Part shown: positions 10,668-48,896 of the stretch, in pieces
Layout: every line of letters begins with the position of its first letter
How positions within the stretch are numbered: position 1 is the first letter of the stretch
From: an uncultured Candidatus Saccharibacteria bacterium
GTDB lineage: Bacteria > Patescibacteriota > Minisyncoccia > Phycocordibacterales > PALSA-1337
Direction of reading: 5' to 3'
NCBI GenBank assembly: GCA_964495685.1
Contig: CAZBVQ010000001.1
Coordinates: 297,521-361,520 of the forward strand
Length of the DNA: 64,000 nt
Translations under genes and position numbers: made by a program
Notes under the pieces: model-generated
What the model was told of the DNA's origin: nothing
The model's database searches: none
What the model saw: the letters and a program-made list of their open reading frames with translations, nothing else

Positions 10668-10677
10668 GGATGGATTG

Positions 10678-10749: not shown

Positions 10750-10760
10750 GTATGCCAATC

Positions 10761-11084
10761 CTACACGTTTTTTGATAACTCGTCTATGCGCTGACGATTC
10801 TTTTCGCCGACGTCTATGGCTACTTCAAAGAAGGGGACGTGACCGATTCGTGATTTTTCCATGACATACTGGCGGAATGCGGTCAGTTGTCTGTGTGCGA
10901 AATCCATAACTGCCGGCTCCTGTGTTTCGGGCATGACAGTCATCAGAATGCGGGCCCTTGAGCCCTTGTTGAAAACCTCAACATCAGTGACAGTAATCAA
11001 GGATTGACGATTTGACTCGCGTGAAAAATACTCAGCGGCTAGCTCTCGGAGGATTTCTTTGAGTTTGTTGTCTTTTTGGTTCAT
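10761..11084 (-). CDS. rbfA: ribosome-binding factor A
   Basis: 107 aa; RbfA pattern (RELAAEYFSRE...LITVTDVEV...); position downstream of infB as in the conserved infB-rbfA arrangement. Confidence 0.85.
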   Translation of the reverse strand: MNQKDNKLKEILRELAAEYFSRESNRQSLITVTDVEVFNKGSRARILMTVMPETQEPAVMDFAHRQLTAFRQYVMEKSRIGHVPFFEVAIDVGEKNRQRIDELSKNV

Positions 11085-11115
11085 TTGAATTTGGGATTTG
11101 TCTAGGATTTAGAGT

Positions 11116-12777
11116 TTAGTTTTTCTCAACAGTTCTTACCGCTTCGATACGATCGCCTGGCGCCAGTTCGAATTTGGCTTCGAGCATCATGCCAAACTCA
11201 AATCCTTCACGTACTTCATCAACCGTTTTTTTGGCCTGCTGGAGTCCGCGGATCTTGCCACGACCAATTTCAGCCTCACGGCGCATGATACGAACTTCGT
11301 TGCCACTTTCGATGGCACCACTTTCGACTTTGCCCCCGAGGACCTGCTTATCTTTTTCCTTTGAGAAAAGGGCTAGAATCTTGGCGCGCCCTGTCATTTC
11401 TTCGACATATTCCTTGGGCACCTTTGCCAGGAGCTCATTTTTGACGAACTCAGTCAATTCATAAATAATGTTGAAGTTGTGAACTTTGAGGGGAATAGGG
11501 GATCGTTCAACGATCGCGGAAGCTTTTTTCTCTGCGGGTGCATTGAATCCAATCACATAAATACTTGGGTCACCAATGGCTACCTTAATGTCATTTTCAT
11601 TGATGTCGCCGATACCTTCGGAGACAATCTTGAGCTGCACTTTGTCGTGAGTAATCTTGCGCAATTCATGCTTGATACCATCGAGACTGCCGATGACGTC
11701 AGCTTTGATGATGATTGGCATGCTGACGACCTGAGGAGCATCTTCAGTATCTGTGGATGATTGTACGGGGTGGCGTGCGGGAGCATTGCGTGCAAGTTCC
11801 TTGAATTCAGCACGATGTTTGTCTGCCAGTTTTTCCGCCTCTTTCTTGCTGGTAGTTGTTGTAAATTCGATACCACAGGCCGGCACCTCATTCCAGCCAA
11901 GAATACGTATCGGCATTGAAGCGGTGGCTGTCTCAATCTTGTCACCCTTGAAGTTCTCGATGAAACGGACTGGCGTGAAGCTTGTCCCTGCTACGACGAA
12001 TGAGCCGACTGATACGGTGCCATCCTTGATGAGGAGGGTGGCAGAAATTCCTTTGCGTGTGTCGAGGGCAGTCTCGATGATGGCACCAGTAGCCGTGGCG
12101 GAAGTGTCGGTTTTGAGGTCCGCAAGCTCGGCGACCAACATGACCATGTCGAGCAATTCGGGTACGCCTTCACCGCTGACGGAAGAAATCGAGACACAAG
12201 GAACATCGCCGCCCCAGCCCTCGACATATATCTCGTGTTCACCGAGACTTTGCTTGGTACGCTCGACGTTGGCGTTCGGCTTGTCGATCTTGGTAATAGC
12301 GACCACGAAAGGAATCTTGGAATTCTTGATGACGTTGTAGGCTTCGATGGTTTGTGGTTTGACGCCGTCCTCGGCAGAAACTATCAATATGGCAATGTCG
12401 GCCACCTGTGCGCTGCGTTCGCGGATACCACAAAATGCGGCGTGACCGGGTGTGTCGAGAAAGGTGAGAGCAGTCTTTGTGCCTTCGGCTGAGACGTGCT
12501 CGACTTGGTAAGCACCCATGTGCTGAGTAATGCCACCCGCCTCACCGGCGACTACGTTGGCTTTGCGGATGTAATCGAGCAGGGTAGATTTGCCATGGTC
12601 AATATGACCCATCACGGCAATGACAGGGGGGCGCACCATCAGATTGTGCTGAGTCTTTGTGGGCATATGAGTTCGAGCGCTCAGTGTAGCAGAAAAAAGG
12701 GTGGTTGACAATGAGAGTTTCATTGTGGTCATATTTCGTTCTTTTTGAACACGATACGCAGAAGTATCAGAGAACAC
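11116..12777 (-). CDS. infB: translation initiation factor IF-2 (short form)
   Basis: G-domain motifs VIAVMGHIDHGKSTLLD, DTPGH, TKIDK; no long N-terminal region; true start ambiguous (ATG candidates at 12777, 12732, 12666, none with a clear SD). Confidence 0.9.
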   Translation of the reverse strand: MFSDTSAYRVQKERNMTTMKLSLSTTLFSATLSARTHMPTKTQHNLMVRPPVIAVMGHIDHGKSTLLDYIRKANVVAGEAGGITQHMGAYQVEHVSAEGTKTALTFLDTPGHAAFCGIRERSAQVADIAILIVSAEDGVKPQTIEAYNVIKNSKIPFVVAITKIDKPNANVERTKQSLGEHEIYVEGWGGDVPCVSISSVSGEGVPELLDMVMLVAELADLKTDTSATATGAIIETALDTRKGISATLLIKDGTVSVGSFVVAGTSFTPVRFIENFKGDKIETATASMPIRILGWNEVPACGIEFTTTTSKKEAEKLADKHRAEFKELARNAPARHPVQSSTDTEDAPQVVSMPIIIKADVIGSLDGIKHELRKITHDKVQLKIVSEGIGDINENDIKVAIGDPSIYVIGFNAPAEKKASAIVERSPIPLKVHNFNIIYELTEFVKNELLAKVPKEYVEEMTGRAKILALFSKEKDKQVLGGKVESGAIESGNEVRIMRREAEIGRGKIRGLQQAKKTVDEVREGFEFGMMLEAKFELAPGDRIEAVRTVEKN

Positions 12778-12806
12778 GGTTAGGTGCTATAATCAGCCCG
12801 CATCAT

Positions 12807-13508
12807 ATGAAATTCTATACCATCGCGCCGCTTATTCTTCAGAAATGCATTTGGATTCCCTGCAGGATTGTGTTCACTCTTTTCGGTCATCTCGAAGTGC
12901 GTGGTCTTGAGAATCTGAAAGGGATAAAAAGCAATGTTATTTTTGCCACAAATCACGCGAGCGAGCTTGATCCGTTTCTAGTGCCCACATCATTGCCTTT
13001 TTTTTCACGATTTTCACCCCTGTTTTATATCACCCGAGAAAAATCATTTTATGATGGCAATGGGTGGCGTCAGCACCTGTTCGGCGGTCTCTTCATAAAT
13101 GCGTGGGGTGGCTATAGTGCTCGCACAGGTCTCCATGATTATCATCGTTCCTTGGTCGAGCATGAACAAATACTGCGTGACGGTGAAAGTTTTTGTGTCT
13201 TCCCTGAAGGTCGTCGTACGCCTGATGGCACATTACAGCCAGGTAAAGGGGGTATTACATTTTTGGCAGAACAGGGGAGGGTGCCGATCATTCCTGTGGG
13301 TTTTTCGGGGACGTATCATTCTCCGGCAAAAGATTTTTTTAGAGGACGAAAACATATTACAGTGACGTTCGGGGTTCCTATATACCAAGAAGAGTTGAAA
13401 CGGCTAGTCCCTCGGGCCACAGTTCCAGGCACCAATGTTTACAAAGAGGAGTCTGCTTATGTGATGAAAAAAATTGCTGAGATATTGGATGTTCAGTCCT
13501 CGGCTTAG
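12807..13508 (+). CDS. plsC: 1-acyl-sn-glycerol-3-phosphate acyltransferase family protein
   Basis: Acyltransferase motifs NHASELD and FPEGRRTPDG; start moved to internal ATG 12807 (TATAAT just upstream). Confidence 0.8.
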   Translation: MKFYTIAPLILQKCIWIPCRIVFTLFGHLEVRGLENLKGIKSNVIFATNHASELDPFLVPTSLPFFSRFSPLFYITREKSFYDGNGWRQHLFGGLFINAWGGYSARTGLHDYHRSLVEHEQILRDGESFCVFPEGRRTPDGTLQPGKGGITFLAEQGRVPIIPVGFSGTYHSPAKDFFRGRKHITVTFGVPIYQEELKRLVPRATVPGTNVYKEESAYVMKKIAEILDVQSSA

Positions 13509-13538
13509 CATAGTCGGACAGTGGCAAGCTCGTTACTA

Positions 13539-14441
13539 TTAGAGGGTATCTTTCGTATACATACGTGCCAACTCTTGGTTCAAGGAAGCCATCTTTTCTC
13601 TCTGGTGCATCTCATGAATGGCGCTACGAATAAGGGTTACCCCGAATACGACAGTGATAATCAAGAATCCGGCTCCAGTAAGGACTTCACGTGGGGTAGA
13701 GGATAATAAGATGCGGATGAGGATGGTGAGCCAGAGGGCGAATATGACAAGCTCGATAGTGAGAATGCGGATATTGAACAGGTGATGTTTCGTTATTGTA
13801 TACGTAATAAATACTAGGAATATGAGAAAACCCAAACTGTCTAACATTCCAGGAACTGGTATGGAGAAAAATGGAATTACAAAAGTCGTTAGGCCTGAAG
13901 CTATCAATGCTACTACAGTGCCCATTAAGATATATTTAAGTTGCGTCTTTTTAATTACGTTGTTTGCATTTTTTTGTCCCATGTAAAGATCTCTGATAAT
14001 CATTATTGCGTAGACTAAATAAAATATCGAATAAACGTATAAGCCGAGGGCAATATTATCGGTGGTTATATTTATGTCATAGACAGGAATAAATAATTTC
14101 ATCATGAATCCCTCTTTGAAACATAAAATCGCAAACACTAATCCGGTAGAGTAAATGGCGGTAGATTTTTTCCATGTTAACTTTTGGCCTACCAGCGTTT
14201 TTGTCCACACTAGCCCTGTTGATATTATGATCGCACCAAATGCGTACGAGGATATAAACCAGTATGCCGAATGCAGGATATGGGACATGAGTTCGGCGAA
14301 TGTCCACATTGCCGCCAAGATACTTAATAACGAAAATAATCGGCCGGTTAGGTCTTTCCTGTTTTGGGACAAAACAAAAACGCTTATTAACGTGTCACAA
14401 AAAATTATGATAACTAATAGGATGTTTATTAATTGTGTCAT
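13539..14441 (-). CDS. multi-TM membrane protein resembling the sensor module of the histidine kinase at 15864
   Basis: 300 aa, about 7 TM helices, ending LIRSAIHEMHQREKMASLNQELARMY, similar to LIRSVLKEVETREKIELLATDLQKA at the TM/HisKA junction of the downstream kinase; no kinase domain. Confidence 0.55.
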   Translation of the reverse strand: MTQLINILLVIIIFCDTLISVFVLSQNRKDLTGRLFSLLSILAAMWTFAELMSHILHSAYWFISSYAFGAIIISTGLVWTKTLVGQKLTWKKSTAIYSTGLVFAILCFKEGFMMKLFIPVYDINITTDNIALGLYVYSIFYLVYAIMIIRDLYMGQKNANNVIKKTQLKYILMGTVVALIASGLTTFVIPFFSIPVPGMLDSLGFLIFLVFITYTITKHHLFNIRILTIELVIFALWLTILIRILLSSTPREVLTGAGFLIITVVFGVTLIRSAIHEMHQREKMASLNQELARMYTKDTL

Positions 14442-14490
14442 AGGCGTGTGTGTGGATAAGGATACTTCTTTTGGTATATAATGTACACAT

Positions 14491-14883
14491 ATGATGCACT
14501 TCGGAGAACATTTAATGATTGATGGTTACGAAGCATCTTGCGGGTCTCTCGATAATCGGACGCTTGTTTTTGAGGTGCTCGATAAGTTGCCGGAAGAAAT
14601 GGGAATGAAGAAACTCTCTCCGCCCCAGGTTTTTTGGGCACCAGCAATAAGTAAAAAAGATTCTGGTGGATGGAGTGGTTTTGTGGTGATTCAAGAAAGC
14701 CACATAAGTATTCACACGTTTCCTCGACGTGGTTTCATTAGTGCAGACATATATACTTGTCAGAATAATATGGATACAGAAAAGGTTCAGAAATATCTCC
14801 GGAAAGCGTTCAGTATTAAGGATATGGAAATTAATTTCGTCAAACGGGGGACGAAATATCCAGAAAAAGACCTATATTCATAG
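14491..14883 (+). CDS. speH: S-adenosylmethionine decarboxylase proenzyme (class 1B, pyruvoyl-dependent)
   Basis: ESHISIHTFP self-cleavage/pyruvoyl serine motif and ADIYTC motif; 130 aa. Confidence 0.85.
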   Translation: MMHFGEHLMIDGYEASCGSLDNRTLVFEVLDKLPEEMGMKKLSPPQVFWAPAISKKDSGGWSGFVVIQESHISIHTFPRRGFISADIYTCQNNMDTEKVQKYLRKAFSIKDMEINFVKRGTKYPEKDLYS

Positions 14884-14917
14884 TGGGTAATATACTAAAG
14901 ATAATGGGGGTGGTACA

Positions 14918-15862
14918 ATGGGTCCTATAAAGATCATCTCGATGGACCAATTTTTTTTAGCTATACATGATATCAGTGATAAGTTAGCGCAAACTTATAA
15001 TTTAGATGTCGGGGCCTTCTTTTGGATTTACGTTACTTCAATTGGACCAATTTATGTCGGTGTTTTTCTTATACTTCGTGGGAGCACGCGTAAACTAACT
15101 TGGCGGGATATCTTTAAGTTTCAGTTAGGAGATGGTTTTCAGTTTACAAATCAGACCTGGTTAGGGCTTGCTATTCATGTGTTTGGATGGCTCATGCCCT
15201 ACCTTTACATATTTGTGTACGGTAAGAATCTTCCTGCGTGGTCATATGTTGTCGTTATTATAATTGTAGGGATCTCATTCTTGACCTTGATTAAGAAGAT
15301 GAATCATCGTAAGAAAAAAGTTATTACACAAGGATTAGATATAGTGAAGATGACGATGATCAATGATTCAGTAAAGGGCGACATTCTTTGGGAGATATAT
15401 GATAAGACCTTTGAACCTGTCAATGAGATTAGTCCTTGTAGGCAGAGTCTTGACAGGGATCACTTTTTCGAGATTTTGACCAATTTGACTGTTACTAAGT
15501 ATCTTTTAATAAAAGAAGGCGTTGGTATTATCGGACTTGCATTAATCACTAACGATCTCAAGAATACTCAGTGGATTAGTCCTGATTATTTCCGTGTAAA
15601 TTTTCCTAGTGAATATCAAAAGAATCTGGTCTATTATTTCATGGGTATTGCTATAAAAAATGAATTTAGAGGAAATAGGTATTCTATTTTGCTTATAGAA
15701 CGAGTTATTGACGATTTGCCCAAGGAAGCCATTATGGGTTTTGATCACTCCAAAAATATTAATCCAATGCTTCATCACTTTACGCAAATAGTCCGTCAAG
15801 CACAAGAGATCAAAAGGAAGCACATTGATCGGCAACATTACCATATTGTTTCTCGAAAATAA
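14918..15862 (+). CDS. hypothetical membrane protein
   Basis: 314 aa, about 3-4 N-terminal TM helices plus soluble C-terminal domain of unknown function; AT-rich. Confidence 0.5.
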   Translation: MGPIKIISMDQFFLAIHDISDKLAQTYNLDVGAFFWIYVTSIGPIYVGVFLILRGSTRKLTWRDIFKFQLGDGFQFTNQTWLGLAIHVFGWLMPYLYIFVYGKNLPAWSYVVVIIIVGISFLTLIKKMNHRKKKVITQGLDIVKMTMINDSVKGDILWEIYDKTFEPVNEISPCRQSLDRDHFFEILTNLTVTKYLLIKEGVGIIGLALITNDLKNTQWISPDYFRVNFPSEYQKNLVYYFMGIAIKNEFRGNRYSILLIERVIDDLPKEAIMGFDHSKNINPMLHHFTQIVRQAQEIKRKHIDRQHYHIVSRK

Positions 15863-15863
15863 C

Positions 15864-17486
15864 ATGTTGTTCAGTAATATTTTTTCAGTTACAACTCTGA
15901 CGCTAAGTTTTTTGTTAGGGTTTTACGTGTACTTAAATGATAGTAAAAATAGAATTAATCAATCATTCATTTTTCTAACTTTTGGAGCAATGATGTGGAT
16001 ATTTGCTAATCTGATGACGGATATTTCTAATGACCTTGCGTTTGTGGATCTGTGGAGCAAGGTTACCATGATAGGCCCTATATTCTTTTCGTACTTCTTC
16101 TATAGACTTTCACTATATTTTCCGAAAGAAAAGATACAAATAAAAAAGAAGCAGCATGAACTCGTTCTTACAATTTTGACGGCGATATTTCTTGTCCTTA
16201 TTCCAACTCGTCTCAATATAAGGAATGTCTATATTGGAGGGAATGGTTTTCCTGAAATTGTAGCCGGGCCTTTGTATATATTTGCCCTGGCTTTTTTTCT
16301 GTATCTAATCATCACGGCACTCAGAAATATTTTTTCTGGCTACAAAAACTTTGACTCGCTCCAACGTCGTCAGGTTCAATATATATCGTTCGGATTGGGA
16401 TTTTTCGTCTTTTTGGGTTCAATGACGAATGCAGTTTTACCCGTCCTAGGAAATTCTCAATTAGTTAATTTTGGACCATATTCTATAATTATATTTATTA
16501 TTTTTACTTCCTACGCGATCATAAGGTTCAAGATGTTTGATATCAAAGTCGTTGTCACGCAATTACTAGTCTATACTTTGTGGATATTTGTTCTAATAAG
16601 AGTTTTGTTGAGTGAAACGGCTCAGGACGGATATACGAATGGGGTCCTTCTCGTCCTCTTAGTCATCACCGGCATCTTCCTTATCCGATCAGTCCTTAAG
16701 GAAGTGGAAACTCGCGAAAAAATCGAACTTCTCGCCACTGACCTCCAGAAAGCCAATGACCGACTCACTGAGCTCGATCGTCAGAAGTCGGAGTTCGTGT
16801 CGTTCGCTACTCATCAGCTCCGTGCACCACTGACCGCTATGAAGGGCTACGCCTCTCTCATTCTCGAAGGGGATATGGGTCAAGTCGCTCCTCAAGCCAA
16901 GGATGCCGTCGGCAGAATATTCGAATCCACCAACACACTGACCAATATCGTTGATGATTACTTGAATGTCACACGCATCGAATTGGGCACCATGAAATAC
17001 GCTTTCGAGACCATGGATTTGAAGACACTTATCGAAGATGTTATCGCCGAACTCAAACCGAATATCGACAAGGCGACAGGTGTCAAATTCATATTTGGTG
17101 CTGAAGATATACATGGAGATTATCGTATCACTGCTGATCGCGACAAACTCAAGCAGGTGATCGCTAATCTCATCGATAACTCAATCAAATATACTCCGAA
17201 GGGATCTGTCGGTGTTTCACTGTCGTTCAATCGCAGCAAGCACAAGTTCATCTTCATGCTCAAGGATACAGGCATCGGTATTGCGCCAGAAACATTGCCG
17301 CATCTGTTCAACAAGTTTACTCGTGCAGGCAACGCAAACAAGACCAATATCAAAGGTACCGGTCTTGGCCTATTCGTGGCAAAAGAAATTATTACGGCAC
17401 ACCATGGTGTTATTCGTGCCGAATCAGAAGGGGAAGGGAAGGGTTCGACATTTATTGTGGAGTTGGAGCCATTTGCGAAAGTATAG
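15864..17486 (+). CDS. sensor histidine kinase (multi-TM sensor, HisKA, HATPase_c)
   Basis: About 7 TM helices, H-box SEFVSFATHQLRAPLTAMKGY, N/G boxes (LIDNSIKYT, DTGIGI, GTGLGLFVAKEI); start at ATG 15864 directly after the upstream stop; no adjacent response regulator. Confidence 0.9.
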   Translation: MLFSNIFSVTTLTLSFLLGFYVYLNDSKNRINQSFIFLTFGAMMWIFANLMTDISNDLAFVDLWSKVTMIGPIFFSYFFYRLSLYFPKEKIQIKKKQHELVLTILTAIFLVLIPTRLNIRNVYIGGNGFPEIVAGPLYIFALAFFLYLIITALRNIFSGYKNFDSLQRRQVQYISFGLGFFVFLGSMTNAVLPVLGNSQLVNFGPYSIIIFIIFTSYAIIRFKMFDIKVVVTQLLVYTLWIFVLIRVLLSETAQDGYTNGVLLVLLVITGIFLIRSVLKEVETREKIELLATDLQKANDRLTELDRQKSEFVSFATHQLRAPLTAMKGYASLILEGDMGQVAPQAKDAVGRIFESTNTLTNIVDDYLNVTRIELGTMKYAFETMDLKTLIEDVIAELKPNIDKATGVKFIFGAEDIHGDYRITADRDKLKQVIANLIDNSIKYTPKGSVGVSLSFNRSKHKFIFMLKDTGIGIAPETLPHLFNKFTRAGNANKTNIKGTGLGLFVAKEIITAHHGVIRAESEGEGKGSTFIVELEPFAKV

Positions 17487-17492
17487 CTACAT

Positions 17493-17509
17493 TCTAGGCC
17501 GGGCCTAGA
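17493..17509. repeat. 17-bp palindrome TCTAGGCCGGGCCTAGA
   Basis: Perfect palindrome 7 nt after the histidine kinase stop codon. Confidence 0.8.
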
Positions 17510-17510
17510 A

Positions 17511-17555
17511 TAAAAAGCGGAGTGGTCACCTCGAGGGTGTCCACTCCATTGCTTT
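17511..17555. terminator. bidirectional terminator
   Basis: GGAGTGG-TCACCTCGAGGGTGT-CCACTCC hairpin; minus-strand reading is followed by GCTTTTTATT, plus-strand reading by ATTGCTTT. Confidence 0.65.
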
Positions 17556-17568
17556 GGTGATCTGGATG

Positions 17569-17841
17569 CTAGAGATCACTATCGGGAAGGCCGCCTGCCC
17601 ATGCGGGACGATCTCTCCAAGTCTTCTTCCGCGGCTGAGATCTCGGTATCTCAGACACAGGCGGAAGCTTCTTGAAGTTCAGCCTCATCTGGAACCCAAC
17701 GTGGTTGCCAGGAGTACCTACGGGAATACTGACTCGTTGCCCCGTGGTAACTTCGGTGGGCTGTACATCCGAAGAGGGCTCCTTACCGTTGAGAGATGCG
17801 TATATTCTAGCGAATGACGCAAGTCCTTTTTCGAGAGTCAT
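17569..17841 (-). CDS. unknown small protein (90 aa) with complete expression signals
   Basis: ATG preceded by GGAGG at 5-nt spacing; upstream TTGACT-N17-TGaTATAAT promoter (17899-17927); bidirectional terminator immediately after stop; product MTLEKGLASFARIYASLNGKEP... matches no family I recognise. Confidence 0.5.
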   Translation of the reverse strand: MTLEKGLASFARIYASLNGKEPSSDVQPTEVTTGQRVSIPVGTPGNHVGFQMRLNFKKLPPVSEIPRSQPRKKTWRDRPAWAGGLPDSDL

Positions 17842-36885: not shown

Positions 36886-36907
36886 GATTATTGAAGTATC
36901 CACATTA

Positions 36908-36937
36908 AACAGGGGACTACGGTCCTCTGTTTTGTTA
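36908..36937 (+). terminator. rho-independent terminator after rplB
   Basis: AACAGGGGAC-TACG-GTCCTCTGTT 10-bp stem followed by TTGTT. Confidence 0.7.
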
Positions 36938-37031
36938 TACTTGTTTTCATGTTCAAACTTTTCATTTCAACCACCAAGAAGGTATTTGATTACGTTTTCT
37001 TCAAATTGGTCGACAAATAGGCGATTATTCC

Positions 37032-37060
37032 TTGACTTACAATAGCCCTTTTGTTAGTAT
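37032..37060 (+). promoter_or_regulatory. promoter TTGACT-N17-TAGTAT upstream of rpsS
   Basis: Consensus -35 with 17-nt spacer, 48 nt upstream of the rpsS ATG. Confidence 0.55.
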
Positions 37061-37108
37061 GCTTGGCGAGCTCCACGGAGCTTGTTTTATTCCGTACTCT
37101 ATTTCATT

Positions 37109-40092: not shown

Positions 40093-40647
40093 ATGAAACA
40101 TACTACCGTTGCAGAACTCAATAAGGGATCATACAAAGCGCTCAAAGAGAAGCTTGGTTTGACCAATCCGATGCAGGCACCTCGTCTCCTCAAGGCAGTT
40201 ATTTCCAATAGTTTCGGTTCGATCAAGGACAAGCGCAAGATTGATCTTATTGCAGATCGTCTGGCCAAGATCACTGGCCAGAAGCCGGCCGTCCGTGTGA
40301 CCAAGAAAGCCATCGCCACATTCAAGACTCGTCAAGGTGATGCTATCGGATACCAGATCACTCTCCGTGGTGCACGCATGTTCGATTTCATGGAGCGCCT
40401 CATCCATATCGCCCTTCCTCGTACCAAGGATTTCCGCGGTCTCTCACGTACCTCAGTCGATGCTATGGGCAACTACACGTTCGGTATCAAGGAACACACT
40501 ATTTTCCCGGAGACTTCAGATGAAGATCTCAAGGACGTATTCGGTTTCGCTATCACATTGGTCACTACGTCACGCGATAAGCAGTCTACTCTCGCATTCC
40601 TCGAGCATCTCGGTATGCCGCTCAAGAGGGAGGAGGGGAAGAAATAG
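40093..40647 (+). CDS. rplE: 50S ribosomal protein L5
   Basis: Conserved L5 blocks (RLLKAVISNSFG, YQITLRGARM). Confidence 0.95.
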   Translation: MKHTTVAELNKGSYKALKEKLGLTNPMQAPRLLKAVISNSFGSIKDKRKIDLIADRLAKITGQKPAVRVTKKAIATFKTRQGDAIGYQITLRGARMFDFMERLIHIALPRTKDFRGLSRTSVDAMGNYTFGIKEHTIFPETSDEDLKDVFGFAITLVTTSRDKQSTLAFLEHLGMPLKREEGKK

Positions 40648-40673
40648 GCCAGTACACAGATTCAATAAATTAG

Positions 40674-40710
40674 AAGCGCCGACCTCACGAAGAGGGCGGC
40701 GCTTGGTTTC
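40674..40710. terminator. bidirectional terminator between rplE and convergent pyrC
   Basis: AAGCGCCG-N15-CGGCGCTT hairpin flanked by T-rich sequence on both readings. Confidence 0.6.
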
Positions 40711-40723
40711 TGGTGCTGTAAGG

Positions 40724-41830
40724 TTACGATTGTTTGATTCGCCACTGCAACATCTCACCGGCCATGAACGGTGTCACTGTGCCAGCACCACTGTCATATC
40801 GTCTAGGCACAGTCCAAGGTTCTTTGACCAGAGCAAGGGCACTTCCATTAGCTGCCTCGGACAGTCCGTATGCAGACAGTCCATTGTACGAGGTGAATGT
40901 CTCCAACATATCCAACTCACCCCGTTCCTCAAATAATTGCGCTAGCCAGGGAATGGCGATTTCCGCTGGATTGAAGACGCCAGCGCAAGCGCAGTCCATG
41001 TTAACCTGATCGTACAGGTGCTTGAGATGATACTTGTGTGGGGCGCTGTCGGTGATTGAGATGAATCCCGGATCTCCCGAAATTGCCGCCCCAATGAGTA
41101 CGGATTGATCATGAGGATACTTGGCACAAGGCCAGCAGTGATGATCCACATTTCCGAGGACATTGTCGAGAGTGAGCCTCAGGTGATGTCCTGTAATAGT
41201 GCCATACACCTTGTTTCTAGTTTGCCGCAAGTCATGTATCAATTGTACGGTCCGGTGGTCAGTCATGTGCTCGACGAAGATGCGAAGTGCTGGGAATCGC
41301 CTACCATATTCCACAATCACTTCGTGAAACTGGCGCTCGCGTGTCAGACAAAACGAATGTGGAAGTTCTGGGTGTATTTGGAATACGAGATTGAGCTCTT
41401 CCATACGTTCGAGACAACGGTGGATTTGCCGCGAAGCGAAGTTTGAGACTCCGCCATGCTGGGCACCGGTGGTTACCCCATCAGGATAGAGTTTGAGGCC
41501 GATACATCCAGCACGAGCGGCGTCGCTGATCATTGTCGGGGTTGTTTGCGGTGTGAGCTTGAGTAAGAACAGTGGCCTGCAGCAGCTTCCTTCGGGTAGA
41601 GCACCGAGGACCAACTGCTGGTATGCCAGCATGTCGTGAACATTCTCGATGTGATGGCTTCTGTTTGCTGGATCCAAGAACGTATTTGGCTCGACGACTA
41701 CATAGCGATAGTGTGCACAGTTGGCTCTGACTAACATGCGGAAACATCGATTACCAACTTGCGCAGGACTGCGCAAATGTGTATGGAAGTCACTCGGTCG
41801 ACGGATGCGGATTTCTTTCAGTCGTTTCAT
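40724..41830 (-). CDS. pyrC: dihydroorotase (type II, E. coli PyrC-like)
   Basis: 368 aa; end-to-end resemblance to E. coli PyrC: RRPSDFHTHLR (E. coli DDWHLHLR), KLYPDGVTT, SDSAPH (E. coli TDSAPH), C-terminal PFMAGEMLQWRIKQ (E. coli PFLAGETVRWSVKQ). Confidence 0.85.
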   Translation of the reverse strand: MKRLKEIRIRRPSDFHTHLRSPAQVGNRCFRMLVRANCAHYRYVVVEPNTFLDPANRSHHIENVHDMLAYQQLVLGALPEGSCCRPLFLLKLTPQTTPTMISDAARAGCIGLKLYPDGVTTGAQHGGVSNFASRQIHRCLERMEELNLVFQIHPELPHSFCLTRERQFHEVIVEYGRRFPALRIFVEHMTDHRTVQLIHDLRQTRNKVYGTITGHHLRLTLDNVLGNVDHHCWPCAKYPHDQSVLIGAAISGDPGFISITDSAPHKYHLKHLYDQVNMDCACAGVFNPAEIAIPWLAQLFEERGELDMLETFTSYNGLSAYGLSEAANGSALALVKEPWTVPRRYDSGAGTVTPFMAGEMLQWRIKQS

Positions 41831-41974
41831 AGGTTTTCAATGGTGTTCAGGGTTTCGGTTGGGTCTGTCGGCATGCTACATTGCTTATACTCTATTTGCA
41901 AGAAGATAGTGGCGGATTCTTTGTGTGTAAAAAGGCCGCCCAGTTGTCTGGGCGGCCGTGTTGTCTGAGTGCTT

Positions 41975-42952
41975 TCAGTCGTATTTGTGGCCCCACTCAC
42001 ACCCTCGAGTTATGATTGACCGTAGTCGCCAAGGGCGTAGCGGTGCGGCCGTGCCGATGAAGATTGACTGAGCGCATTTCCATTCTGCGAGTTGATCAGC
42101 ATCGTGTATAGACATGATACCACCGCCGACATTTAGAGGAACTCTTCCGTCAAGCTCGGAATACCTAGCTACCCAATCCCGGACGATCCCAGTGATCGGA
42201 GATCCCGACAAGCCACCATTACCGAATCCATATTTTGCCAGTGGTGAAGTCGTCGACTCGAAAAGTCCTTTCCAATCAATCCGGTCGGATAACTCTCCCC
42301 AAGGGACAGTGTTGGAGACGCATATCGCATCACACAGATGACTCTCGGAGAATTCCACTGCAAGTTCCGGTGGGATCAAGGCATTGAATTTCGGAATAGT
42401 CGGGATATCGAGGGTTGAAGCAATTTCTAGTCCCTCGAGTACTTCAGCCAACAATTCACGAAGGTCATGTTTGACGTTCGGGCATGACCAGTTGATCTGC
42501 AAGGCTATCGATGCCTTGAAATTAGGCAGATACGTTTTCAACAAACTGATGAAGTTACGTAGCTCATACATACGTTCTTGTCGTGTCTTGCCTATGGCCA
42601 TGAATGAGAGTACGAATGGTTTCGTCCGTGCTTGCCAACGGCCATCATCCAGGTAGAAGCGGGCACCCAGATTGGATAGTCCGACTGCGTTCAACATAGC
42701 GCCCGCCCGGAAGTTGGCGACGATGCACCTAGGCCTGAATTCACGTGGAGTTGTGCCGTCGGGGTAGAGTGGCATGTTTCCAGGATTTGGATTCAACGTG
42801 ATTGTTTTGGCCACGAAGGTGACGTTCTTGAACGTGAACAGGCCAGGAAACATAATACGATAGTAGCGATGGAATGGATATCCTTCACCCCAGAATCCTT
42901 GAACCCCCGATGCTCCCCAGACAGGGCCGAAGTCGATGCCGTGTAATTTCAT
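41975..42952 (-). CDS. pyrD: dihydroorotate dehydrogenase-like protein (PyrD family, class 1-like with active-site Cys)
   Basis: Start at ATG 42952 (the track ORF begins at TTG 42991); motifs GPVWGASGV, NAVGLSNLG, QINWSCPNV (Cys base), NVGGGIMSIHDA match DHOD family blocks. Confidence 0.75.
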   Translation of the reverse strand: MKLHGIDFGPVWGASGVQGFWGEGYPFHRYYRIMFPGLFTFKNVTFVAKTITLNPNPGNMPLYPDGTTPREFRPRCIVANFRAGAMLNAVGLSNLGARFYLDDGRWQARTKPFVLSFMAIGKTRQERMYELRNFISLLKTYLPNFKASIALQINWSCPNVKHDLRELLAEVLEGLEIASTLDIPTIPKFNALIPPELAVEFSESHLCDAICVSNTVPWGELSDRIDWKGLFESTTSPLAKYGFGNGGLSGSPITGIVRDWVARYSELDGRVPLNVGGGIMSIHDADQLAEWKCAQSIFIGTAAPLRPWRLRSIITRGCEWGHKYD

Positions 42953-43048
42953 AGATTTTGCTTTCTTTGTCCTGTTTTTTCTGATCTGCAATCAGACTAA
43001 TCTATAGCATGGTAATACGCAAGTTATAAGATGATCATTGCCACACAT

Positions 43049-43077
43049 TTGACCTCTCTCCATGAGTTTGCTATAGT
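43049..43077 (+). promoter_or_regulatory. promoter TTGACC-N17-TATAGT restarting the spc operon at rpsN
   Basis: Good -35/-10 with 17-nt spacer; a 5' UTR hairpin TCCGCC-CAG-GGCGGA at 43123-43140 follows. Confidence 0.55.
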
Positions 43078-43189
43078 ACCCACACCTTACTTTATAAAGG
43101 TTTTCATACCTAAACATCGATTGGAAGCACATTTCCGCCCAGGGCGGAAAATAGCTAACCAATCCTCGTTTTATTGAAACGAAACATTC

Positions 43190-43375
43190 ATGGCAAAGAC
43201 ATCAGTCATCGTACGATCCCAGAGAAAGCCGAAATTCAAGTCGCGCGTTGTTCGCCGTTGTTTCCGTTGCGGTCGCAAGCACGGATATATGAGAGATTTC
43301 GATCTCTGCCGTATTTGTTTCCGTGAGTTCGCCAACGAAGGCGTTATTCCAGGTATCAAGAAATCTTCGTGGTAA
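43190..43375 (+). CDS. rpsN: 30S ribosomal protein S14 type Z (zinc-binding)
   Basis: 61 aa with [10 protein letters not shown]...CRIC zinc ribbon. Confidence 0.9.
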
Positions 43376-43391
43376 TTCCTTTTTTACTCTC

Positions 43392-43778
43392 ATGATTACC
43401 GATTCTATCGCCAACCTCATTACTCGCATCAAGAACGCCAGCGACGCCCGCAAAGTCTCTGTTGTGGTACCTCATTCCAAATTGGTAGAGAACATTGCTC
43501 ATGCTCTCAAAAAGTCAGGATATCTTTCGAGTGTTCAGGCAAACAAGGCAGCTCATGAGCTCGAGCTCGGTATCGTCTACCTCGACAGTGCTCCACGTGT
43601 CACTGGCGTCGAACGTGTATCCAAGACCTCTCGTCGTATGTATCAGAAGTCTGGTGACATCCGCGTGTTCCGTAGTGGTTTCGGTAATACATTCTTGTCT
43701 ACTCCCAAGGGTATCTTGGTTGACATGGATGCCAAGAAGCTCAAGGTCGGCGGGGAAGTCCTCTTCAGAATTTGGTAA
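43392..43778 (+). CDS. rpsH: 30S ribosomal protein S8
   Basis: Start at internal Met MITDSIANLITRIKNA; S8 core. Confidence 0.9.
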   Translation: MITDSIANLITRIKNASDARKVSVVVPHSKLVENIAHALKKSGYLSSVQANKAAHELELGIVYLDSAPRVTGVERVSKTSRRMYQKSGDIRVFRSGFGNTFLSTPKGILVDMDAKKLKVGGEVLFRIW

Positions 43779-44703: not shown

Positions 44704-45381
44704 ATGACCGCACAAGATATCAAGACCAATAACGAATCAGCTCCGGTGAAGGTACCGTCGACAGGTGTTGATGCTGCATCTGTGGCTCCAGAAGTTGCTG
44801 CCAGTGCAAACAAAATCACTCCAGGACGCAAGATGCGAGGAGATTCAGCACGTCGTGGCGGTTCGAGTGGACCTCGCGCTCCTCGTGGTGGTGCTCGTGG
44901 CGAACCTCGTGAGCGTGTCAAACCCGAGTTTGATTCCAAGATCATCGATATTCGTCGTGTGACCCGTGTGACTTCAGGTGGTCGCCGTATGAATTTCAGT
45001 GTTGCTGTCGTTGCTGGTGATCGCAAGGGTCGTGTCGGCGTCGGTCTCGGCAAGAGTATCGATACTGCCTCAGCTGTCGAGAAGGCTACTCGTGATGCCA
45101 AGAAAAATCTCATCAAGGTTCCTTTGTCTGCACAGATGACTATTCCTCATGCGGTAGAAGCCAAGTATGCTAGTGCTCGCGTCATGATTTTCCCAGCTCG
45201 TGGACGTGGAGTGGTCGCTGGTAGCTCAGCTCGTGCTGTCATCGAAATGGCCGGCATCAAGGATGTGTGTGCCAAATACATCTCAGGTAGCAAGAATCGT
45301 CTCAACAACGCCAAGGTAGCTATCGAGGCATTGCGTAGACTTACCAAAGTATCGCGCGCGGTTCTCAATCCGAACAAATAG
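44704..45381 (+). CDS. rpsE: 30S ribosomal protein S5 (long N-terminal extension)
   Basis: Core RVTRVTSGGRRMNFSVAVVAGDRKGRVGVGLGKS; about 70-aa Arg/Gly/Ala-rich extension. Confidence 0.9.
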   Translation: MTAQDIKTNNESAPVKVPSTGVDAASVAPEVAASANKITPGRKMRGDSARRGGSSGPRAPRGGARGEPRERVKPEFDSKIIDIRRVTRVTSGGRRMNFSVAVVAGDRKGRVGVGLGKSIDTASAVEKATRDAKKNLIKVPLSAQMTIPHAVEAKYASARVMIFPARGRGVVAGSSARAVIEMAGIKDVCAKYISGSKNRLNNAKVAIEALRRLTKVSRAVLNPNK

Positions 45382-45411
45382 TTTTCCATTTTAATTTTCC
45401 CATCTACTACC

Positions 45412-46020
45412 ATGCAATTCCATAATCTACAACGCAAGACTCCCAACATGAAGCGCATGATTGTTGCTCGTGGTGGCAAGCGTGGCAAGACTTCAGGCCG
45501 TGGTGGCAAGGGTCAATCAGCTCGTGCTGGTAACAAACGCCGTCCAGAATGGCGTGACATCATCAAGAAGCTCCCGAAGTTGCGTGGTCGTGGTGTCAAC
45601 CAAAACAAGCCAGTATCTCTGAAGCCGATTGTCATTAATGTGTCTATCATCGAAGGTGCATTCGCTGCAAACGAAGCTATTACCCCGACTGTTCTTGTCG
45701 AGAAGGGTATTGTTGCTACTATGTCTGGCGTCATCCCGATGATCAAGATTCTCGGTGACGGTGAAATCACCAAGGCGCTCAAGTTCTCTGGTTGTTACGT
45801 TTCAGAGAGTGCCAAGGCCAAGATCGAAAAAGCTGGTGGTTCTGTCACGCTTCCTGCGTCACGCGTTATTCCCAAACAGAAGGGTCCGACTCATGAGAGC
45901 GATAGGGCTGTAGTTGTCGAGAAGAAGGTTGCTCCTGCCAAGGAGACCAAAAAAGCAGGGAAGGGAGCCAAGTCGAACAAGAAAGCCGCTGACAAAAAGT
46001 CAGAAGAGAAGAGCGCCTAA
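45412..46020 (+). CDS. rplO: 50S ribosomal protein L15 (C-terminal Lys-rich extension); follows rpsE directly, no L30
   Basis: RGGKRGKTSGRGGKGQ pattern; only 30 nt separate rpsE and rplO so there is no room for rpmD. Confidence 0.85.
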   Translation: MQFHNLQRKTPNMKRMIVARGGKRGKTSGRGGKGQSARAGNKRRPEWRDIIKKLPKLRGRGVNQNKPVSLKPIVINVSIIEGAFAANEAITPTVLVEKGIVATMSGVIPMIKILGDGEITKALKFSGCYVSESAKAKIEKAGGSVTLPASRVIPKQKGPTHESDRAVVVEKKVAPAKETKKAGKGAKSNKKAADKKSEEKSA

Positions 46021-46026
46021 TATCAT

Positions 46027-47298
46027 ATGAATAATTTCGCCCAGAAAATAACCGCAGCACTCAAGGATCCGATTCTCCGCAAGAGAGTCGGGTTCACCAT
46101 TCTTGCCTTGGTGCTCTTCCGTCTCTTGGCGACTATTCCAATTCCAGGTGTCAATGCTGCCAATCTTTCGACATTGCTCAATTCGAGCCAGTTCTTCGGT
46201 TTCCTCAATATTTTTTCAGGAGGAGGTCTTTCCAATCTATCGATTGTGATGTTGGGTGTCGGACCGTTCATTACCGCATCTATCGTTATTCAGCTCCTCA
46301 CTATGATGTTCCCCAAGTGGAAGGCTCTTATGCATGAAGAAGGGGAAGCTGGCCGTCTCAAGTTGTCACATTACTCACGTCTTTTGTCAGTTCCGTTGGC
46401 GATCGTCTCGGCTATCGGATTCATGGTCTTGCTCCAGTCCCAGAATGTCCTGCCACATCTCGATACGATGGCATACATCATCAACATCATCGTTATCACT
46501 GCTGGCTCAATGTTGCTTATGTGGATCGGTGAACTCATCTCAGAATTTGGTATTGGCAACGGTGTTTCACTCATCATCTTCGCCGGTATCGTCTCAGTGT
46601 TGCCGACCCGTTTGACACAGTTCGTGGCTGATTATAACGTCGGCAATCTTCCTGTGTACATTGCAGGACTCGTCATCGGACTTGTCGTCGTCGCGGGCGT
46701 TGTCTATGTGACTGAGGCTGAGCGCTCAGTGCCTGTAACGTATGCCAAGCAGGTAAGGGGCAACAAAGTCTACGGTGGCGCATCGACCTATCTCCCGCTC
46801 CGCCTCAATCAGGCAGGTGTTATCCCTATCATCTTCGCACTCTCGATTTTGCTCTTCCCGCAAATCATTTCCAATTTCTTGTCACATGTTTCCAATGCTA
46901 CGATTGCCGGATACGCATCGGCCTTCACTGCATTCTTCAATAACCAGTGGGTGTATGGCATTCTCTACTTCGTTCTCGTCGTAGCCTTCACGTACTTCTA
47001 CACCGCAGTGACATTCGATCCCAAGCAGATTTCAGAGAACCTCCAGCGTTCAGGTGCTTTCATTCCTGGCGTTCGTCCAGGCGAGCATACTCGTGACCAT
47101 CTCGCATCTATTGTTACCCGCATCACTCTCGTTGGTTCGATTTTCTTGGGCGCCGTCGCCATCTTGCCACTTATTATGCAAGGATTCACTGGCAACAAGA
47201 CATTGGCCATCGGCGGTACCGCGCTTCTCATCGTCGTGTCGGTAGTTCTCGATCTTCTCAAGAAGATTGACGCTCAAGTGTCGATGCGTGAATATTAA
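46027..47298 (+). CDS. secY: preprotein translocase subunit SecY
   Basis: 423 aa, 10 TM helices, conserved SecY blocks (LMWIGELISEFGIGNGVSLIIFAGI). Confidence 0.95.
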   Translation: MNNFAQKITAALKDPILRKRVGFTILALVLFRLLATIPIPGVNAANLSTLLNSSQFFGFLNIFSGGGLSNLSIVMLGVGPFITASIVIQLLTMMFPKWKALMHEEGEAGRLKLSHYSRLLSVPLAIVSAIGFMVLLQSQNVLPHLDTMAYIINIIVITAGSMLLMWIGELISEFGIGNGVSLIIFAGIVSVLPTRLTQFVADYNVGNLPVYIAGLVIGLVVVAGVVYVTEAERSVPVTYAKQVRGNKVYGGASTYLPLRLNQAGVIPIIFALSILLFPQIISNFLSHVSNATIAGYASAFTAFFNNQWVYGILYFVLVVAFTYFYTAVTFDPKQISENLQRSGAFIPGVRPGEHTRDHLASIVTRITLVGSIFLGAVAILPLIMQGFTGNKTLAIGGTALLIVVSVVLDLLKKIDAQVSMREY

Positions 47299-47343
47299 TT
47301 AATCAAATTGACCACCAAATAGAATTCTGGTAGATTCAAACGT

Positions 47344-48039
47344 ATGGATATCAAGACCAACAAAAAGGGAATCGAGAATATGTTCGCCGCAGGCGCTCAC
47401 TTCGGCTTGGGACGTTCACGTCGCCACCCTTCAGTGACCCCTTTCATTTTCGGTACCAAAAACTCAACTGACATCTTCGATCTCGAAAAGACCGCGGGAT
47501 CATTCGATAAGGCCGCTACCGTCATCGCCGCTCTCGGCAAAGAAGGCAAGACTGTTCTCTTCGTTGGTGGCAAGAAAGAGGCCTCTGTCGCTGTCAAAAA
47601 TGCCGCACTGGCACTCAATATGCCCTACGTCGATGGTCGCTGGATCGGTGGGACGTTGAGTAACTTCGGTCAGATCAGGAAGCGCATTGACCGCTATGAG
47701 AAACTCATTTCTGACCGTGAGAAGGGTGAGCTTGCCAAATATACCAAGCGCGAGCGTATGCTCATCGACAAGGAGATCGCTTCACTTGAGAAGATGTTCT
47801 ACGGTATCGTATCTCTCAAGAAGATGCCGGATGCACTTTTCGTCATCGACCCTCGTCGCGAGAAGATCGCTGTCACCGAGGCTATGACCATGAACATTCC
47901 CGTTATTGCACTTGCTGGATCAGATTGCGACATTCGTGAGGTCACGCACGCTATCATCGGCAACGACACATCCAAGTCAAGCATCAGCTTCTTCCTCGAT
48001 GAGGTCGCCAAGGTGTACCAGGCCGCAAAAAAGATATAA
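47344..48039 (+). CDS. rpsB: 30S ribosomal protein S2
   Basis: AGAHFGLGRSRRHPSVTPFIFGTKN...IFDLEKT; 231 aa. Confidence 0.9.
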   Translation: MDIKTNKKGIENMFAAGAHFGLGRSRRHPSVTPFIFGTKNSTDIFDLEKTAGSFDKAATVIAALGKEGKTVLFVGGKKEASVAVKNAALALNMPYVDGRWIGGTLSNFGQIRKRIDRYEKLISDREKGELAKYTKRERMLIDKEIASLEKMFYGIVSLKKMPDALFVIDPRREKIAVTEAMTMNIPVIALAGSDCDIREVTHAIIGNDTSKSSISFFLDEVAKVYQAAKKI

Positions 48040-48100
48040 GATTCAAGGTTCATGATTCAAGAATAGTTGCAGCCGCACTTATCCTTGAATCTTGAATCCT
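48040..48100 (+). promoter_or_regulatory. inverted-repeat (attenuator-like) element between rpsB and tsf
   Basis: GATTCAAGG (48040-48048) pairs perfectly with CCTTGAATC (48084-48092); a second GATTCAAG/CTTGAATC pair is nested inside. Confidence 0.45.
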
Positions 48101-48302
48101 GAATCAGGGTTCAACTTCTACTATGCTCAGCCCATTTCTGTTATGGAAATCGAATAAAGATTCTGCCAAGAAGAAACCACCGTATTCCGCTGTTTCTTCG
48201 CTGAAAGAAAAACAGGCGAAATTATCGGAGAAACTTTCGGTCGCAGATACGCAGAGGAACATTCCATCAACTAACACATCGACACCTAATAACTCAACTA
48301 CT

Positions 48303-48896
48303 ATGTCAACCATCTCAACAGAACAAGTCAAAGCCCTCCGTGATCAGACCGGTATTTCGGTCATGCAGTGTCGCAAGGCTCTCGAAGAGGCGGGTGGTGA
48401 TATGGACAAGGCTCTCGTCATTCTCCGCAAGAAGAGTGGTGAGCTTGCCGCCAAGAAAGGTGACCGTACGTTCGGTTCAGGTACTGTACAGGCATACGTT
48501 CATGCCAATGGTAGTGTAGCTGCTATGGTTGAGCTCAACTGCGAGACTGATTTCGTGTCCAACAATGACGAATTCAAGACCCTTGCTCGCGATATTGCTA
48601 TGCACGTCGCTGCTACCAATCCCAAATTCCTCAAGAAGGAAGACATTACCGAAGCTGACATGAAGGTCGCTCGTGAAGTCTTCGAAAATGAAGTCAAAGA
48701 CAAGCCGGCGGCCATGAAAGACAAGATTCTCCAGGGCAAGCTTGATACGTATTTCGCCGAGATGGTGCTCCTCAGTCAGCCCTTCATTAAGAATCCCGAT
48801 ATCACCATTCAGGGGTTGGTAGATGCGGCTGTTCAGAAATTCGGTGAGAAGACAGCCATTGCCCGCTTCAAGCGATTCAAGGTCCTCGAGAACTAA
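48303..48896 (+). CDS. tsf: elongation factor Ts
   Basis: Start MSTISTEQVKALRDQTGISVMQCRKALEEAGGDMDKAL (UBA-like N-terminus typical of EF-Ts); in-frame upstream extension to 48123 is possible but unsupported. Confidence 0.85.
   Translation: MSTISTEQVKALRDQTGISVMQCRKALEEAGGDMDKALVILRKKSGELAAKKGDRTFGSGTVQAYVHANGSVAAMVELNCETDFVSNNDEFKTLARDIAMHVAATNPKFLKKEDITEADMKVAREVFENEVKDKPAAMKDKILQGKLDTYFAEMVLLSQPFIKNPDITIQGLVDAAVQKFGEKTAIARFKRFKVLEN

Follow-up and report, generated by a model that had tools for sequence, protein, structure and literature searches.

A probable pyrD-pyrC cargo in a split spc operon of the candidate phyla radiation

The genes for ribosomal proteins L5, S14 and S8 (rplE, rpsN and rpsH) form an adjacency that is normally among the most rigid in bacteria, and bacteria in the candidate phyla radiation (CPR; Patescibacteria) are usually described as unable to make nucleotides. 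Here we report on two minus-strand genes resembling pyrC and pyrD, for dihydroorotase and dihydroorotate dehydrogenase (DHOD), that lie between rplE and rpsN in a 64,000-nt stretch of contig CAZBVQ010000001.1 (positions 297,521 to 361,520; assembly GCA_964495685.1), hereafter the window. Among DHODs, a cysteine as catalytic base is a class 1 trait, and the class 1A enzymes of Trypanosoma cruzi and Lactococcus lactis (A) are stand-alone and fumarate-linked. The spc operon of E. coli is controlled by S8, which binds an mRNA structure overlapping the start of rplE, and this S8-binding RNA is confined to Gammaproteobacteria (PMC3616713).

We read the window as carrying an spc operon that was split within its lineage, with a native pyrD-pyrC pair as cargo at the split that would act in the synthesis of uridine monophosphate (UMP), and we put the probability of this reading at roughly 0.65. 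The labels "Candidatus Saccharibacteria" and "Gammaproteobacteria" on third-party (TPA) assembled genomes seemed untrustworthy, and placement did not rely on them.

Identity of the two minus-strand genes

An earlier reading, made from the letters alone and called the sequence-only reading below, had placed a type II dihydroorotase and a class-1-like DHOD, both on the minus strand, between rplE and rpsN, and this arrangement held up. In the open reading frame (ORF) map, rplE (40093-40647, + strand) is separated by a gap of 2542 nt from rpsN (43190-43375, +), which encodes a Zn-type S14 of 61 aa that is 98% identical to the copy in locus L009 of a sister genome; rpsH follows (43392-43778, +). 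Pfam Ribosomal_L5 and L5_C, and Ribosomal_S8, matched the L5 and S8 proteins on an identical public contig. The gap holds a pyrC-like gene of 368 aa (40724-41830, -) and a DHOD-like gene of 325 aa (41975-42952, -), both full length and free of frameshifts, and the canonical rplE/rpsN/rpsH adjacency is absent. The longest ORF of the DHOD-like gene comprises 338 aa (41975-42991, -) and opens with a TTG at 42991. This TTG is an unlikely start codon; the gene begins at the ATG at 42952 both in family alignments and in public gene calls. The exact pyrC-like protein, with the same flanking genes on both sides, recurred in at least eight independently assembled contigs (five of them 0.2-1 Mb long) from at least four independent samples (ERZ27309394, SRR6747782, SRR6747781 and DRR783857), so the junctions are not an assembly artefact.

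The pyrC-like protein matched TIGR00856 (pyrC_dimer) from end to end (residues 6-366 against positions 1-341 of the 341 in the model, E 4e-71), with a score of 239.6 bits that is below the equivalog cut-off of 292.95. Its matches in the PDB were exclusively type II dihydroorotases (E 2e-43 to 1e-35), from Burkholderia, Vibrio, Campylobacter, yeast and E. coli. When aligned with E. coli PyrC and numbered accordingly, the protein was found to keep all metal ligands (H16, H18, the carboxylated K102, H139, H177 and D250) and all substrate contacts (R20, N44, T109, T110 and H254). The sequence-only reading was correct about the HxH metal motif and about a C-terminal end like that of E. coli PyrC; the motif it gave as SDSAPH is TDSAPH. 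The strong evidence all pointed to dihydroorotase, and a generic amidohydrolase identity was rejected. These results suggest that the gene encodes a divergent type II (homodimeric-type) dihydroorotase. The protein falls into a small, long-branch clade of about 23 relatives with more than 38% identity, and four typical dihydroorotases that partner the DHOD-like protein elsewhere in the CPR scored 320-362 bits on TIGR00856. In its more distant relatives, either the pair or a lone pyrC is found in a different setting, SpoU-DoxX-[DHOD]-pyrC-holA-polA-tsaE.

The DHOD-like protein passed the gathering score of Pfam PF01180 (DHO_dh; 44.5 bits against 27) and fell far below the cut-offs of the NCBIfam class 1 pyrD models NF005574 (40.6 bits against 269) and TIGR01037 (28.2 against 270). 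Other members of its subfamily reached 43-73 bits on NF005574, the best class 1 model, and the closest DHOD in the PDB was found by sequence at only E 0.003 and ~20% identity. An AlphaFold2 model built with 46 homologues was of high predicted confidence (predicted local distance difference test 94.5, predicted template-modelling score 0.92). Its 50 best fold matches in the PDB were all DHODs of class 1A and class 2, at template-modelling (TM) scores of 0.6-0.68 and ~20% identity, and trypanosomatid class 1A enzymes ranked at the top. Residues N88, N154, P158, N159, K188, N214 and T215 aligned with N111, N172, P176, N177, K217, N246 and T247 of E. coli PyrD, with Cys157 in place of the catalytic Ser175, and these active-site residues were invariant or nearly so across 46 sequences of the subfamily.

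Pfam Dus and His_biosynth gave insignificant matches (E 0.29 and 0.023, respectively, both below the gathering scores), and a Dus-type identity was rejected. With regard to class 1B, no PyrK partner (with FAD and a 2Fe-2S cluster) was found, whether as a recurrent third neighbor or among ten immediate neighbors of suitable size. With regard to class 2, the catalytic serine is replaced by cysteine and nothing aligned to the first ~50 residues of E. coli PyrD. The class-1-like DHOD of the sequence-only reading is thus borne out by family, fold and catalytic base, as a very divergent member: the model and the alignments point to a DHOD-fold protein with a class-1-type Cys base, for which a stand-alone, class-1A-like DHOD is the best reading.

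A conserved promoter and leader at a junction that accepts cargo

A survey of the junction was made with 80 metagenomic loci fetched with the L5 protein of the window. In loci whose L5 was 54-87% identical, the gap between the L5 and S14 genes measured 144, 183, 200, 236, 379 and 428 nt, with further values of up to 4692 nt, and in nine of them S14 was absent over the 4-6 kb available. In loci with L5 of 50% identity or less the gaps were mostly tight (3-61 nt), with two of 268 and 345 nt. The cargo differed from genome to genome and lay on either strand; it included a PIF1 helicase, an ECF sigma factor with DUF5667, an Fn3 surface protein, a pilin-like lectin, an asparaginase, a heavy-metal P-type ATPase and an SDH-type protease. 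None of the junction loci in this survey carried the pyrimidine pair, and in locus L101, whose ribosomal proteins are 83% identical, the L5-S14 gap is 200 nt long and free of cargo.

The nearest genome with the DHOD-like gene is the sister assembly GCA_964619985.1 (loci L009 and L014), with ribosomal proteins 84% identical and a DHOD-like protein 76% identical, likewise encoded between L5 and S14. In L009, an NYN-domain gene (8304-8801, +) lies upstream of the DHOD-like gene, and a dihydroorotase-like gene occurs on the ribosomal strand (10086-11141, -). The product of the latter scored 151.7 bits on TIGR00856 and is only 24% identical to the dihydroorotase of the window; its metal ligands are kept despite this divergence. 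As judged from these comparisons, the L5|S14 break is ancestral in the lineage and the particular cargo of the window is not, and the junction behaves as a standing cargo site. The claim that the window breaches a universal adjacency in a singular way was not upheld, since the junction is open across the whole lineage with different cargo; ancestral order, which would have turned the supposed novelty into conserved synteny, was found for the break and not for the genes within it.

The promoter of rpsN (43049-43077, +; TTGACC-17-(TGc)TATAGT) matched the consensus scan at 10 of 12 positions and has a TG extension. Both hexamers, in the form TTGAC(C/T)-17-TGCTA..(A/C)T, were conserved in register in 12 relatives, including the cargo-free L101, where the promoter stands directly after the stop codon of rplE. 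The sequence-only reading had rightly located this promoter and seen that the downstream ribosomal genes have one of their own. It had also called the promoter fresh; the presence of the element in L101 shows that it is ancestral and was not made by the insertion.

Between the promoter and rpsN lies a structured 5′ leader of ~96 nt (43081-43176, +) with a predicted fold of -30.2 kcal/mol (z -5.15). It consists, in order, of a short hairpin, an invariant GAUUGG/CCAAUC stem, an asymmetric, A-rich internal loop, an invariant AGC/GCU stem and a distal hairpin. In the consensus structure the distal hairpin varies in sequence and length, and it alone showed compensatory changes. A covariance model (R1) built from 11 leader sequences found 15 instances, all on the rpsN strand and immediately upstream of rpsN. 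Among the loci that include rpsN, the leader was present in 15/15 of the close lineage (L5 of 73% identity or more), and it was missing from every more distant locus. Copies occur in L009 (8081-8178, -), L101 (6634-6729), L128 (7551-7636) and 11 further loci. A search of positions 40600-43400 against Rfam 15 gave no match at the gathering score and no relevant match at E ≤5. It is a reasonable inference that the leader is a candidate autoregulatory RNA for ribosomal protein synthesis, non-homologous to that of E. coli.

The strongest signal in the region is an intrinsic terminator directly after the stop codon of the DHOD-like gene (41934-41957, -), with a 10-bp stem of which nine pairs are GC, followed by UUUUU; its fold of -23.5 kcal/mol (z -6.8) was matched in stability by 0 of 200 shuffled sequences. 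It had escaped the sequence-only reading, which proposed a bidirectional terminator between the convergent rplE and pyrC-like genes. A hairpin was in fact found there (40674-40704, both strands), as an inverted repeat with 13-nt arms that are 92% complementary and folds of -23.1 kcal/mol on the plus strand (z -2.7) and -24.1 on the minus strand (z -4.4). Its U-tails are weak on both strands and the terminator scan did not call it, so that a role as a shared bidirectional terminator is plausible at most. A weak promoter-like sequence, TTTACA-17-TATCTT, precedes the pyrC-like gene (41903-41931, -) and agreed with the consensus at 9 of 12 positions. Upstream of the DHOD-like gene and divergent from the rpsN promoter, TGCTATAGA (43001-43009, -) may be read as an extended -10 element with a poor -35.

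Separate transcription of the two minus-strand genes is probable: they have the strong terminator between them, and a hairpin shared convergently with rplE stands at the end of the pyrC-like gene. The DHOD-like transcript would run from the extended -10 element to the terminator at 41934-41957, and that of the pyrC-like gene from its own weak promoter-like site (41931-41903) to the hairpin at 40674-40704, where the rplE transcript may end as well. We also observed the octamer TGCTATAG, which contains the palindrome CTATAG, on both strands of the divergent intergenic region (43002-43009 and 43069-43076); it could serve as the extended -10 of both rpsN and the DHOD-like gene.

Spread of the gene pair and competing explanations

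More than 960 relatives of the DHOD-like protein, hundreds of them at ~50% identity, were found by a word-indexed search. A profile search of 1.84 billion representative sequences gave 501 clusters at E ≤1e-30 and only 2356 proteins at E ≤1e-3, so the profile hardly sees canonical DHODs. The subfamily thus numbers ~500 clusters at 50% identity, mostly from the CPR. In Staskawicz-, Colwell- and Kaiserbacteria and in Minisyncoccia, its members carry the NCBI (PGAP) label "hypothetical protein", and JGI labels them dihydroorotate dehydrogenase.

We counted other pyrimidine genes within 10 kb of the DHOD-like gene at 80 loci from GTDB species genomes and at 80 control loci from related genomes. 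At least one was present at 47/80 loci, compared with 0/80 controls. A dihydroorotase gene was found at 37/80 loci, and in ~36 of these 37 it was the next gene downstream in the same orientation, in many cases overlapping or no more than 12 nt away. The gene for orotidine monophosphate decarboxylase (pyrF) was found at 9/80, pyrB directly upstream at 2/80, and a pyrE-type phosphoribosyltransferase at 2/80. These counts tie the subfamily to the pyrimidine pathway; the pyrD-pyrC pair is a widespread, common CPR cassette, and the subfamily appears to be the CPR solution for the DHOD step. In Parcubacteria GW2011_GWA2_49_9, an orthologue of the pyrC-like gene of the window has as its partner a canonical class 2 DHOD, which scored 377.8 bits (cut-off 267). 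Such a non-orthologous exchange makes sense only if the role of the partner is that of a DHOD. CPR are generally thought to lack quinones and respiratory chains, and the presence of this quinone-dependent class 2 gene beside the pyrC-like orthologue (locus L007, 1705-2742; GCA_001004005.1) is thus odd.

Several further observations concern the subfamily. Members with ~46% identity occur in Acidobacteria, namely in L053, L054 and L093 (Vicinamibacterales; contigs or chromosomes of 2.3-5.6 Mb) and in L056 (a 20-kb contig of a metagenome-assembled genome). The gene of L054 (10001-11008) has an ISL3 transposase and a DNA methylase next to it, and its vicinity lacks pyrimidine genes. The acidobacterial neighbors (transposase, methylase, pyrroloquinoline quinone dehydrogenase and an amidohydrolase that is not a dihydroorotase) were judged uninformative as a clue to function; these copies could reflect transfer out of the CPR or a second function. 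Two members, P0409 (755 aa) and P0438 (749 aa), have double the usual length and match the profile in two separate stretches, and they may be fusions or contain an inserted element. In an Azambacteria locus (L023), two overlapping ORFs (5994-7096) make up the dihydroorotase that follows the DHOD-like gene downstream, and this split may represent a frameshift or a pseudogene. Lastly, L079 (JBAYVZ010000003.1, Candidatus Paceibacterota; ribosomal proteins 56% identical) carries a 7.9-kb block between rplB and rpsS (9828-17719) that contains a DHOD-like gene (10001-10978), pyrF (13457-14344), a hexapeptide-transferase-like gene and others, and, separately, a DUF5672 gene between L5 and S14 (4784-6431). 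L079 is a second, independent case of a DHOD-like gene inside the ribosomal cluster, in a distant CPR lineage.

In the reading we prefer, the window comes from a small-genome CPR bacterium whose lineage would have cut its spc operon into two transcription units at L5|S14, with rplE as the last gene of the upstream unit and rpsN as the first gene of a downstream unit that would restart from the conserved sigma-70-type promoter and structured leader and extend through secY. Because the junction already has an internal promoter, the space upstream of it would tolerate inserted genes, and related genomes would fill that space with unrelated cargo. The PyrC-like protein of the window, as a binuclear-metal dihydroorotase, would cyclise N-carbamoyl-L-aspartate to dihydroorotate (step 3 of UMP synthesis), and the DHOD-like protein, as a TIM-barrel enzyme with flavin mononucleotide (FMN) and a Cys base, would convert dihydroorotate to orotate (step 4). 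Electrons from FMN would then pass to a soluble acceptor, which we infer because neither a PyrK partner nor a membrane domain was found. The rest of the UMP pathway would be encoded elsewhere in the genome.

A number of results weigh against this reading. Neither protein reaches its NCBIfam equivalog cut-off, and, in agreement with the sequence-only reading as regards pyrB, pyrE and pyrF, none of pyrB, carAB, pyrE and pyrF was found within the window. A pyrF search returned thousands of CPR genes, and none from the 700,686-bp contig of this genome was among the best 120 matches. No dihydroorotase occurs within 10 kb at ~35/79 of the DHOD-like loci, and the acidobacterial copies adjoin a transposase without pyrimidine genes nearby. 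The sister dihydroorotase differs in sequence and strand, so the pair is not stably inherited as a unit. In addition, 93% of Patescibacteriota genomes were scored as lacking de novo nucleotide pathways, the genes of which have a scattered distribution in the phylum (10.64898/2026.06.21.733656). That count would miss any pyrD that annotation pipelines do not recognize.

Several of these points would be accommodated by real enzymes that do not serve UMP synthesis. The pair could run in the reductive, catabolic direction, from orotate to dihydroorotate to carbamoyl-aspartate, as an electron sink or nitrogen source similar to clostridial orotate fermentation, or it could act on a related substrate such as another cyclic ureide. 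The scores below the equivalog cut-offs, the distance of the DHOD-like protein from characterized DHODs, the want of pyrB, pyrE and pyrF in the window, the fermentative habit of CPR and their mostly negative scoring for de novo nucleotide synthesis, and the roughly one-half of the subfamily without a nearby dihydroorotase would all fit. However, the neighbors of the subfamily elsewhere include the biosynthetic genes pyrB, pyrF and pyrE; all residues that bind orotate in the DHOD-like protein, and dihydroorotate or carbamoyl-aspartate in the dihydroorotase, are kept; and in one genome a canonical, biosynthetic class 2 DHOD takes the place of the subfamily. We consider this explanation unlikely, although it is the strongest of the competitors.

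The sequence-only reading had favored a recently acquired partial pathway or salvage module, lodged in an otherwise intact spc operon together with a terminator and a promoter that it had either carried in or given rise to. Its evidence included codon choice. CGA, AGG and CTG are indeed enriched in both genes, but only in comparison with the ribosomal protein genes, an excess to be expected at lower expression; the two genes are typical of the other non-ribosomal genes of the window. The pair has a GC content of 0.51, its GC content at third codon positions is 0.53 compared with 0.53 ± 0.08 for non-ribosomal genes of the window, the codon-usage distances of the pyrC-like and DHOD-like genes are 0.70 and 1.01, respectively, compared with 0.99 ± 0.24 for the other non-ribosomal genes, and the 4-mer distance of the insert lies at the 66th percentile of 2.5-kb windows. 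Since all of these measures are native in character, recent horizontal transfer was rejected on grounds of composition. No tRNA within 6 kb, Rfam element or integrase was found, and the direct and inverted repeats flanking the insert were short and at chance level. Some replacement of the partner did take place, given that the dihydroorotase at the same junction of the sister is non-orthologous. The small, long-branch clade of the window's dihydroorotase and the terminator and 144-nt spacer between the genes, which differ from the overlapping cassettes elsewhere, likewise favor an acquired module. On the other hand, the DHOD-like gene occupies the same site in the sister and has diverged to a similar extent as the ribosomal proteins (76% compared with 84% identity), the promoter and leader are older than the cargo, an open junction is found throughout the lineage, and the cassette is common in the CPR. 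Taken as a whole, these results leave a foreign module improbable; the two genes look like native genes in a lineage-wide gap.

A decaying, non-functional remnant of a lost pathway, tolerated in a permissive gap, is more improbable still. The low TIGR00856 scores of the window and sister proteins (239.6 and 151.7 bits, compared with 320-362 for typical CPR partners) would suggest relaxed or altered constraint, and the dihydroorotase of L023 is split. Yet both ORFs of the window are full length without frameshifts, all of the catalytic residues are intact, the identical protein sequence was recovered from several samples, and each gene is followed by a terminator or, for the pyrC-like gene, a candidate terminator, with promoter-like sites upstream. 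Finally, a chimera of a ribosomal and an unrelated metabolic contig, for which nothing speaks beyond the unusual gene order, is effectively refuted by the same order in at least eight contigs, some of them 0.5-0.7 Mb long, from at least four independent samples and assemblers and by the DHOD-like gene at the same junction of the sister genome.

Significance and comparison with known systems

A foreign pyrimidine module that breaks a universal operon, as the locus was originally framed, turns out to be largely ordinary. Less ordinary are the discrete, unnamed DHOD subfamily, the standing cargo site at L5|S14 and the conserved, undescribed leader of rpsN. Within the collection of papers searched, we found nothing on any of these three, nothing relevant that links dihydroorotate or dihydroorotase to the CPR, Patescibacteria or Parcubacteria, and nothing on spc gene order at L5|S14 in the CPR. 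We tentatively propose, at somewhat less than even odds for the proposal as a whole, that the subfamily is a distinct, stand-alone, Cys-type DHOD class that provides step 4 of UMP synthesis in many CPR and that L5|S14 is a standing insertion hotspot guarded by a new autoregulatory rpsN leader. If this is true, annotation-based surveys understate the de novo pyrimidine capacity of the CPR, and it may be asked what accepts the electrons of DHOD in cells without quinones or a respiratory chain. Surveys of pathway completeness may be biased because the DHOD step would fall here to a subfamily that goes unnamed in standard models and that its neighborhoods in many CPR genomes tie to pyrC, pyrF, pyrB and pyrE. 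The split spc operon, for its part, would be a concrete case of a superoperon that was subdivided and then became a permissive site for gene insertion.

Other features of the window were noted along with the gene pair. The gene for L30 (rpmD) does not occur between rpsE and rplO (region 44704-48896), which are 30 nt apart. The secY gene is followed directly by rpsB and tsf, instead of adk, map, infA, rpmJ, rpsM, rpsK, rpsD, rpoA and rplQ, with a promoter-like TTGACC-17-TAGATT ahead of rpsB (47308-47336). The gap of ~220 nt between rplB and rpsS (36886-37108), the junction at which L079 has its cargo, may be a further internal break of the ribosomal cluster. Within it lie a hairpin resembling a terminator (36907-36932) and a promoter-like TTGACT-17-TAGTAT that has a TG extension (37032-37060). 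A stretch at ~13000-16500 is low in GC (0.35-0.44 compared with ~0.49) and is the strongest 4-mer outlier in the window. It holds a gene resembling that for S-adenosylmethionine decarboxylase (14491-14883) and two ORFs without a Pfam match (13539-14441, -; 14918-15862, +). If foreign DNA is sought in the window, this stretch is a stronger candidate than the pyrimidine pair.

Compared with known systems, the DHOD-like protein most resembles the class 1A DHODs of T. cruzi and L. lactis (A), with which it shares the FMN TIM-barrel fold, the Cys base within an N-x-S-C-P-N motif, the Asn, Lys and GGLSG motifs, and the apparent lack of a PyrK-type partner or membrane anchor. It differs from them in its ~20% identity, in TM-scores of only 0.6-0.68 and in the 28-73 bits that the subfamily scores on class 1 models with cut-offs of ~270. 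The dihydroorotase resembles the type II PyrC described by TIGR00856 in its end-to-end alignment, in its HxH and Lys/His/His/Asp ligands and in the Thr-Thr flexible loop, and differs in an N-terminal insertion of ~10 residues and in a score below the cut-off that other CPR partners pass. The other CPR cassettes of the two genes (e.g., L020, L051, L073 and L047) have the same subfamily, gene order and strand as the window. Their genes, however, usually overlap or lie no more than 12 nt apart, whereas a terminator and 144 nt separate those of the window; their dihydroorotase passes the equivalog cut-off and that of the window belongs to a different, divergent clade; and the pair of the window lies inside the ribosomal cluster.

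With the spc operon of E. coli the window shares its genes and their order (L14-L24-L5 ... S14-S8-L6-L18-S5-L15-SecY), from which it departs in the cut between L5 and S14 and in the absence of L30. The S8 site of E. coli lies at rplE, whereas the internal promoter and leader of the window lie upstream of rpsN. In both cases a structured RNA would stand at an internal point of the cluster, from which it could couple the synthesis of ribosomal proteins to demand.

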